DNA of 64,000 bases from contig NC_134026.1 in the NCBI RefSeq assembly GCF_964204645.1, forward strand, positions 27,128,150 through 27,192,149, read 5' to 3'. The number at the start of each line of letters is the position of its first letter. The stretch's first letter is position 1. The stretch comes from Tubulanus polymorphus (taxonomy: Eukaryota; Animalia; Nemertea). Shown here one piece after another: positions 24,201 through 27,200 of this stretch. The notes below the pieces were generated by a model. That model was given only the letters and a program-made list of their open reading frames with translations. It did no database searches and had not been told where the DNA came from. A program made the translations under genes and the position numbers.

Positions 24201-27200
24201 CATTTACATTATGCTGTTTAATCATTTCATGTCATTCTTCAGTTGGTTTCTATTCTGGCGGATATTCATCAGTCTGAAAATTATATTCTCATTAATTGAA
24301 AAAAGGCTACATTCACATGGCAGCAATTCGGGTGTTCTATTCAGATAGACTCTGCATGTCTTTTCCATTTGGAACCGATTGGCTGCCAATTTTAGTGAAT
24401 TGCTGTTCATGTTGATGTTTGCTAATGCTTTGGCTGCGCTGATGCTTCGTTGCAGATATTGGGTCTATAATGCACGTTACTGAGCTTTCTCCTTTACGAG
24501 GCGCTGTGTCCTGGACTGGCAACGCCGTTACCTACTTCCTGCATATTATAGATCGTACATTGGTGAGTAGGAAACTGGTTGGTATGGTTCTTCGTTGTGA
24601 CCGACATGTTCTACTCAAATTTATCACATTTCATTTATATATGAAAGTCATTTGAAAGTTCGTATAGAAATACAATACATACCGTAAATGATTTGCGATG
24701 AAGGTGATATTACTCGTTGGAGCACAAAGGACCTACTCATGCCCCACAGCCTCATGGGGTTATAGGGATAGTGTCTGCAACCCACTGAAGCGGAATGAAG
24801 ATTCTTATATAGCTAGTTACGTTGAGAAACTTTGCTATTACAAGTGACACAAAGATATACCTCAGTTCGAGAGAATAGAACCTTCATTCTGTTAGTATGG
24901 TACATCTGTACGTGTGGTAGACGATCCATTGTTCACGATTTTTGTTGCGACAGATATTGGTTCGATAATGCACGTCGAGGAATTAAAACCGTTACGTGGT
25001 GCAGTGTCGTGGACTTGCAAAGCGTTCACATATTTTGTGCACTCTATCGATCGCACGTTGGTAAGTATTGATGTCCATAACGAATCGCTATCATCAGTTC
25101 TACTGTTGAACTACACAAGGTGATCTTAATTGGAAGAACTTGAAGAGCCATTATGATGATGATAGTAATCATCATTTACATCACATGTAAATGTTACAAT
25201 TTGAATGGATGTGGTGTATGATAAGATAACCATAATTTCCTCCTATTCGGTTTAGAGGTTTCATAGTCATGAATAAAATGATACTGTTTCATTGTTAGTC
25301 ATGGTAAAAATTTTATAATAACTACATTATTTCCCAAATAGATATTGTAATTATGAATTGATTTTGCTAATTTTACTGCACATACTGATATGCTTCTACT
25401 GTTTTATTTTTTCTAGTTAGAAAATTATTTTCAAAGAATGAAAAATCCAAAACTAAGGGTAAGTGTTAGTTATTTCAGTATATGTATAGATGTCCCTGCT
25501 GTAGTTAGATTTTAATTTCACGTAGTTCTGGAAGATGGCAGTAGAGTGTATTGATTATTAGCAGTAGCCAGCTGCTATGTGAATGGTGGCCATGAAAATT
25601 AACATCCGAGCGACGCAATAACCACTTGTCACATAATACTGATATATTGTAACATGGATTTAAATAGCTTTGATTTATTGTTGCGTTATTTACTGGTGAG
25701 CTGCATCAGTTTATTGTTGAAACTTGACAGAACTAGTAGTTTCATCTTACATGGATAATAGAAAATTGGAGATATCTTTAACAGCTATAGTATCTTCTAA
25801 AATTAAAAAGATATTTCTGTTTCTTTTTCTTCAATTTTTTCTTTGTCATGGTGTATTATAGAATTCCATTGTATTCAGGTGAATTGATGTTTTTTCCAGT
25901 CTGGTGAAACTACAAATGGAGGTCGATCAACACGACGAAATACAGCTCATAATGATCATCCATACCAGGCAGCTAAAGCACTCGATTTCGATAGTTCAAG
26001 TAATGATGCTTCGACTGTAGATTCTGGATTTGGGCCAACAACTAGGCGTCAGTGGAATGAAATCTGCGCGAAACCCGCGTCAGAAAAAGAAAATGACCAG
26101 GTATCTTTTATATCTGGTTAATTTATCGCACCAAACTAAACTTTTTGCAGTTTGTTCCTGTCAATTCAAGCGTATTCGGTGTTTCAGAATGAAAAGCGTA
26201 CAAAAGAACATACCAAGGCTCCGAAACGAAAATCTCGTTCTGCTCGGGATATTAGACGGAATCAGTCCTCGAAGCAACGTAGACGGCAGTACAAATTATC
26301 AGGTAACAGATAGTCGATTTAATGGTCATTATAAATTACCTGGGTTATATAATTTTTATGAAATATGTTGAATTTATGTACCAACATGTATGGCATCATT
26401 TCAGATGAAAATCATTTAGTTGCAAAGAGTCATATGGCAGCTACTAATCAACAAGCAATGGAAAGTCTAGATCTGCTGCATACACATACACTCCTTAGTA
26501 ATACAAACTCAGGGACGAATATGTATAACGACCTCAGTATGGTCAGAGATGATTTAATGCCATCCACAAAACCAGCTTTGCCTCCGCGTAGTGCAGGACC
26601 TGCTAATCTTGATGAGCTTTTTGGTAAGTAAAACCACGATTACCCCTTGGAGGTGATTTTAGAGTTTTAAACCCTAGTGCATTGTATAATGGGCATCTGC
26701 CCCGCAGTCGGATGTATTGTAAGTAACCGGTATCAATTTTTATGATGCCATCTCGCAACAGAGATTTTAACTAAAAAAATTGATAATTACTTCGCGTGGT
26801 GGGCTCAATTTAGGTTGGTGGATACGTGCACTGTAAGTGTTGAAGCGTTACAAGATTGGCTCAATACAATTCTGATTATTGTATTACTCTTATTTTAGCT
26901 TTACTTCGTCAGCAATATGAGGATTATATGAACTACATGGGTTCGGCACAACAAAAAGAGGAACTTTCAAAGAGAGTTGATCAAGCCAAGGTACTTTTTC
27001 AAAGGTCTTCATCTTCAAATAAGGAATGAGTTCTTTTGGACATACGAATAAATGTTATGTTATGTTGAAATTTTAGTTGTATAACCATGAATTGAAACAA
27101 CAGGCAGCAAATCTCGAAACTCAAATATCAAATCTTCAAACAGAAGGAATAGTTAAATTTAAAACTAGACTCAAGGAGGTAAATTCTGAAATGCTTAATA

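Follow-up and report, generated by a model that had tools for sequence, protein, structure and literature searches.

Here we describe a pair of tandem paralogous exons, A and B, in the gene for the H3K79 methyltransferase DOT1L of the nemertean Tubulanus polymorphus (RefSeq LOC141900876). The gene lies in a window of 64,000 nucleotides, by which we mean the whole stretch of DNA that was analysed. Each exon encodes a version of motif VIII, the loop that carries W305 in human DOT1L (human numbering is used throughout), and the comparisons of homologous proteins reported below suggest that swapping one exon for the other probably yields two active enzymes, the loop of exon B being repacked and giving a different rate or product mix. 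DOT1L is, to our knowledge, the only H3K79 methyltransferase. It is a leukaemia drug target whose catalytic core varies very little among animals, so that a clade retaining two substrate-engaging loops is unexpected. In a ribbon worm, clams, snails and a tubeworm, two chromatin enzymes of different tuning are likely to arise from a single gene by splicing.

In the mechanism that we propose, the two exons are an ancient tandem-duplicated pair within a reading frame that accepts only one of them at a time. Exon A would keep the ancestral loop, and exon B would have fixed V310F together with L314V or L314I and usually lost the basic residue at position 300. The two motif VIII loops would engage H3K79 and the H4 tail differently, and this altered engagement would change the methylation rate or the mix of me1, me2 and me3. 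Wrongly spliced transcripts would be removed by nonsense-mediated decay. In Tubulanus, an upstream intronic element, termed U, is predicted to pair over the 5' splice site of exon A and thereby to favour exon B, and other lineages may use other means of exclusion, for example an A-B intron of 53 nt.

The exon pair, its reading frame and its transcripts

Protein P0007 of the gene matches the DOT1 methyltransferase domain PF08123, and the best fold matches are to human DOT1L. In RefSeq, isoform X1 (XP_074644030.1) contains exon B and isoform X2 (XP_074644031.1) contains exon A; splicing either exon between 23836 and 25417 reproduced 506 of 506 tested residues of the corresponding isoform. Positions of the features are collected in the table.

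Features of the DOT1L gene, in positions of the window
Feature	Position	Strand	Description
DOT1L coding span	21251..31646	+	LOC141900876, 1470 aa in each of isoforms X1 and X2; first 506 residues from spliced exons identical to P0007/P0016; start and stop placed by eye
Constitutive exon 5' of the pair	23688..23836	+	motifs IV and VI, equivalent of the R282 anchor; ends in phase 1; RNA joints
Exon A	24456..24562	+	ancestral-type motif VIII loop, human 286-321; V310, R300; spliced in run X5; isoform X2
Exon B	24954..25060	+	derived-type motif VIII loop; F310, V314; isoform X1; groups with B of other species (95/87)
Constitutive exon 3' of the pair	25417..25458	+	ubiquitin-binding helix, equivalents of L322/F326; starts in phase 0; RNA joints
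Intronic element U	24086..24123	+	predicted pairing with 24529-24565 (3' half of exon A and its 5' splice site)
Intronic element D	24754..24781	+	predicted to pair, less strongly than U, with 24449-24477 across the 3' splice site of exon A

A preliminary description of this DNA had given the coordinates of the two exons, their lengths of 107 nt, their AG/GT ends, entry in phase 1 and exit in phase 0, the lack of stops and the translations, and all of these were reproduced. Its alignment to human DOT1L was confirmed as well: the counterpart of the exon is D286-I321, which includes W305 and Y312, the latter presumably a residue of the lysine channel. The location claimed for the exon thus holds: it encodes the W305 loop, with the R278/R282 anchor before it and the L322/F326 ubiquitin contact after it, and VSWT of motif VIII is encoded in exon A and exon B alike. 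The exons share 75 of 107 nucleotides and 29 of 36 residues, the other 7 residues being different. Nucleotide differences number 7, 3 and 22 at the first, second and third codon positions, respectively, and 18 of the 28 complete codons that keep their residue differ silently; pS between the two exons is 0.79, which is saturated, and pN is 0.15 (Fisher p = 4e-9).

With exon boundaries taken from RNA joints, the computed splice product that includes both exons runs into a stop at 24966, and the product that skips both runs into a stop at 25905. Either exon alone keeps the frame, in support of the earlier claim that exactly one must be used, and the same constraint applies in every tandem locus considered below. 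Stops that lie more than 50 nt upstream of a later junction are expected to elicit nonsense-mediated decay; both stops are so placed, and we infer that both products would be subject to decay.

One contig of run X5 carries the joints 23836>24456 and 24562>25417, with exon A included and exon B skipped, as two of the junctions proposed in the preliminary description predict. The other two, 23836>24954 and 25060>25417, were not seen, and no joint into or out of exon B was found in the contigs of four runs, of which only X5 held the spliced gene; missing cover over exon B in X5 does not mean that B is silent. The use of B in Tubulanus is accordingly taken from RefSeq model X1. Contigs of run X2 are unspliced and cover exon A, most of the A-B intron and exon B, and runs X7 and X8 match two short distant pieces only. 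The transcript evidence consists of contigs, which carry no isoform ratios. Among bivalves, each version, A (P0283) as well as B (P0039, P0042), is found in uninterrupted products of 1175-1834 aa from run contigs, so that both presumably occur in spliced RNA.

Several database models (P0015, P0378, P0285 and P0306) have no catalytic domain and begin at or just 3' of the exon pair. Isoform X3 of Tubulanus and one Owenia model start at a conserved Met within exon B, and Mya X4 and Haliotis rufescens X9 have a short new N-terminus joined to the exon 3' of the pair. Models of this kind may represent frameshifted transcripts or an internal start. Elsewhere in the window, the first coding intron of DOT1L holds a short repeat element of high depth (21686-21733) at which run X2 has many loose ends, and an open frame at 46622-47569 encodes about 10 tandem copies of a 10-residue repeat rich in Ser and Glu.

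Distribution, ancestry and residue signature

The preliminary description had proposed a search for tandem copies in relatives, and nemerteans, molluscs and an annelid proved to share the pair. Pairs of isoforms that are identical outside the 36 residues occur in Tubulanus and in a second nemertean, Lineus longissimus, where both versions are present as isoforms of equal length, as well as in Argopecten, Mya, Mizuhopecten, Pecten, Mercenaria, Ruditapes, Gigantopelta and Haliotis. Both versions are also present in the Mytilus cluster and, overall, in nine of the ten mollusc clusters checked; in the tenth, of oyster-like run contigs, all 10 members that reach the exon carry B (best 15 of 53). 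A gene model of Pinctada has A followed by B in tandem, and the annelid tubeworm Owenia has proteins of both types, that of B being partial. Patella (5/5) and Saccostrea (4/4) gave the B type only, as did Lottia, Batillaria, Capitella, Lymnaea and one monogenean flatworm, B-only protein sets being no proof that A is lost. A single version was found in the outgroups, namely sea urchin (7/7 with the exon; best 15 of 22), Penaeus (13/13; best 15 of 42), ticks (14/14; best 15 of 20) and Glandiceps (4/4), and among the matches listed no deuterostome or arthropod cluster showed the pair.

At the genomic level, 9 of 46 loci have A followed by B in tandem, as 107-nt exons with AG/GT ends (this count includes L046, in which exon B is cut at the contig end). 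Another 33 loci, which form a related group, have a single A-like exon, and four loci lack the intron 5' of the exon. No second exon copy was found in the eight single-copy loci tested. The single-copy loci (L012-L036 and L038-L045) encode V310 but have C300, which elsewhere is a typical B residue; loss of B is a possible origin of these 33 loci.

The two versions were compared in an alignment of 16 A/B pairs with 10 outgroup rows, from which L004 (nearly a copy of L003), the truncated L046, the partial Owenia B, and Mizuhopecten, Pecten and Ruditapes (identical to rows that were kept) were excluded. At position 310, all 16 A rows and all 10 outgroup rows have V, and all 16 B rows have F. At position 300, 15 of 16 A rows have R and 15 of 16 B rows a non-basic residue, the exception being Tubulanus B with R300; at position 314, 14 of 16 A rows have L, and 15 of 16 B rows have V or I. 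V310 is likewise found in 115 of 115 other listed homologues (33 lophotrochozoan ids removed). W305, S304, I290 and Y312 are retained in all 16 B rows. Owenia B has L at position 310, an exception to F310, so that together with R300 of Tubulanus B it makes the signature less than absolute. The preliminary description had noted a cluster of differences just after the Trp (GNAV in A, CKAF in B); of these, G307C and N308K turned out not to be conserved, C307 being present in exon A of a clam, and the conserved differences are V310F, L314V/I and the usual loss of the basic residue at 300. A DOT1L-like protein of the beetle Diabrotica (P0194) has F at the position of human 310 and seems to have acquired this B-type residue independently.

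A tree of the 36 columns places all B rows in one clade (95/87, rough values from a short alignment with an unsettled bootstrap), and the A rows do not form one clade, which fits A as the ancestral version. Judged from the tree and the alignment, exon A is ancestral, with V310, and exon B is one derived clade. DOT1L of the monogenean Protopolystoma (P0237) is of the B type (F310) and forms a long branch within the B clade, a hint that flatworms may be younger than the duplication.

Across eight loci, mean pN is 0.146 for A-A, 0.140 for B-B, 0.217 for A-B within the same locus and 0.225 for A-B across loci, and pS is about 0.8 in all of these comparisons. Low pN with pS near 0.8 shows that each copy was kept under selection and without general homogenisation. 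Both parts of the earlier proposal of an old duplication with two selected copies were thereby borne out: its age by the saturated pS and the distribution of the pair, and purifying selection on both copies by the proposed dN/dS check, which gave pN of 0.14-0.15 within copies vs pS of about 0.8. We infer from these sequences that the duplication is older than the split of nemerteans, molluscs and annelids. An age of more than 500 million years is likely.

Intronic elements and the choice of one exon

Element U contains a perfect 14-nt inverted repeat as its core. Its predicted duplex with 24529-24565 has 35 pairs, 7 of them G-U, and an energy of -43.8 kcal/mol, as compared with -30.1 for the antisense control; neither the 60 shuffles (mean -22.1, sd 2.8) nor the 150 real-sequence controls (best -40.1) included a duplex of this strength. 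The pairing also forms in the local predicted fold with a mean probability of 0.9, and U is predicted to pair more strongly with exon A than with exon B (-43 vs -27). Its G-U bias argues for selection on RNA. The pairing of D is predicted at -32.6 vs -25.1 +/- 2.5 for shuffles (0/60 as strong), as one of 11 combinations tested; it does not form in the local ensemble, where the pairing of U wins. According to these models, pairing of U and of D would both repress exon A, and pairing of U over the 5' splice site of exon A may regulate the choice of exon.

Within 700 nt upstream, the pairing of U was absent in nine of nine other tandem loci (z from -2.0 to +0.5, vs -9.8 in Tubulanus), which are distant and in part truncated, so that conservation among nemerteans is still possible. 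A wider scan over all combinations of introns and splice sites of the tandem loci found none as strong, the best being -36.5 in L007. At most, element U is thus specific to one lineage; it may also be an inverted relic.

Splicing by docking site and selector, as in the Dscam-type model, involves a conserved intronic element that pairs with competing partners, one per exon, whereas U pairs strongly with A only and is unconserved in the nine loci. The 391-nt A-B intron has no YTRAY match and many AGs, for which reason a distant branch point was rejected; U12-type incompatibility was rejected because the splice sites are ordinary GT-AG. In two loci the A-B intron is only 53 nt long (L001, 306-358; L008, 747-799), a length at which steric exclusion is possible, and exon A of L008 has a weak pyrimidine tract.

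Consequences of the swap and comparison with known systems

In human DOT1L, the lysine tunnel is formed by V135, F243 and W305, the last of which completes it; the W305 loop becomes ordered on the nucleosome alone, activity is abolished in W305A, S304 is close to H18 of H4, and I290 is a ubiquitin contact whose replacement in I290A reduces stimulation by ubiquitin (bioRxiv 10.1101/501098). The VVEL293MM variant shows a gain in activity of about 3.6-fold and a 2-fold loss of inhibitor sensitivity (PMC5322889), R292C reduces activity (PMC11581099), and a simulation places K300 among the strongest H4 contacts (PMC8671179). The conformation of the motif VIII loop is a candidate cause of the difference in products between DOT1L and Dot1p, and the basis of DOT1 product specificity was termed elusive in the same report (PMC10951340). 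The catalytic contacts named in these papers are identical in A and B, and V310 is not mentioned in the accessible text of those searched for the residue. Residue 310 lies five positions after W305 and is bulky in B; in an AlphaFold model of a B-type limpet domain, which keeps the DOT1L fold (TM ~0.87), it stands just before the strand that follows the loop in sequence order.

The identity of all named catalytic contacts, the single copy in one lineage and the early stops of both mis-splices would also agree with two equivalent loops, the pair persisting through subfunctionalised splicing or through mis-splicing to decay that sets the amount of DOT1L. We regard this as rather unlikely, given that V310 and F310 are fixed per copy in all 16 pairs while other positions drift, that A-B pN exceeds A-A and B-B pN, and that the invariant V310 of the 115 other homologues makes a neutral F improbable. 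A larger change, by which B would be an H3K79 enzyme independent of ubiquitin or of the H4 tail, a low-activity scaffold or an enzyme for non-histone lysines, could be read from the bulky residue behind W305 and from the loss, in 15 of 16 B rows, of a basic residue at the position that the simulation ranks so highly among H4 contacts (PMC8671179). It seems the less probable of these two alternatives: the oyster-like contigs are B-only in 10 of 10 full-length members (best 15 of 53), so that B probably fulfils the usual function of the enzyme, B retains both the ubiquitin contact I290 and the W305 motif, and the modelled B-type domain retains its fold.

The lack of a B joint in the Tubulanus runs, only one of which held the spliced gene, is the one point in favour of a dead pseudo-exon, and together with the view of the pair as an assembly artefact this reading is scarcely credible: pS is saturated with low pN, order and length are repeated in nine other loci, B lies within uninterrupted 1175-1723 aa products of bivalve run contigs, and the unspliced X2 contigs span A, most of the A-B intron and B. 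Two active enzymes with differently packed loops is the reading that we prefer. Its extension to Lophotrochozoa as a whole, in which a V310/F310 splicing switch would alter the H3K79 product state or the dependence on H2B ubiquitin and so set me1, me2 and me3 by tissue or stage, is a tentative and on present sequences doubtful proposal; if true, the pair would be a natural minimal swap that reveals what sets DOT1 product specificity. In any case, A and B provide a natural swap of 7-14 residues for testing this specificity, and possibly point to sites of activity tuning or inhibitor sensitivity in DOT1L.

The absence of a prior report for animal DOT1L, assumed in the preliminary description, stands in part. 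By titles and the starts of abstracts, the open literature on exon duplication in DOT1 or DOT1L gave no description of the pair (a supplementary exon catalogue could list it, subscription papers and supplements being outside the scope of the search), and a study of the annelid chromatin toolkit mentions dot1l without isoforms in its accessible text (PMC12153100). The isoforms themselves, however, are already in RefSeq: those of Tubulanus, Lineus, scallops, clams, mussels and abalones contain the same two exons, as automatic gene models with unlabelled isoform numbers. The class of event is likewise known, and it is the clade-wide conserved DOT1L pair that is apparently undescribed.

Tandem duplicated exon substitutions, or homologous mutually exclusive exons, are of equal length and phase, very old, and swap a functional part of the protein, according to the main text of a survey of human events (PMC9741552), which has no mention of DOT1, methyltransferase or chromatin. 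Examples are OGDH 4a/4b, SCN 5a/5b and the pore exons of NALCN (PMC8373072, PMC7969005, PMC12772994, PMC3557258). The DOT1L exons resemble this class in being tandem, paralogous and equal in length and phase, and differ from the OGDH, SCN and NALCN cases in that their host is a histone methyltransferase. The motif VIII loop of human DOT1L and yeast Dot1p has the same fold and motif as the Tubulanus exons; the solved human structures are of the A-type sequence, and the cited papers, as far as their text was accessible, contain no characterised F310 variant. The analogy with trypanosome DOT1A and DOT1B drawn in the preliminary description is a loose one: in either case one organism has two DOT1 catalytic variants, but the trypanosome work concerns residues of motifs IV and VI, which are not part of the exon (PMC10951340), and DOT1A and DOT1B are separate and widely divergent genes, whereas in Tubulanus DOT1L a single 36-residue exon is swapped.
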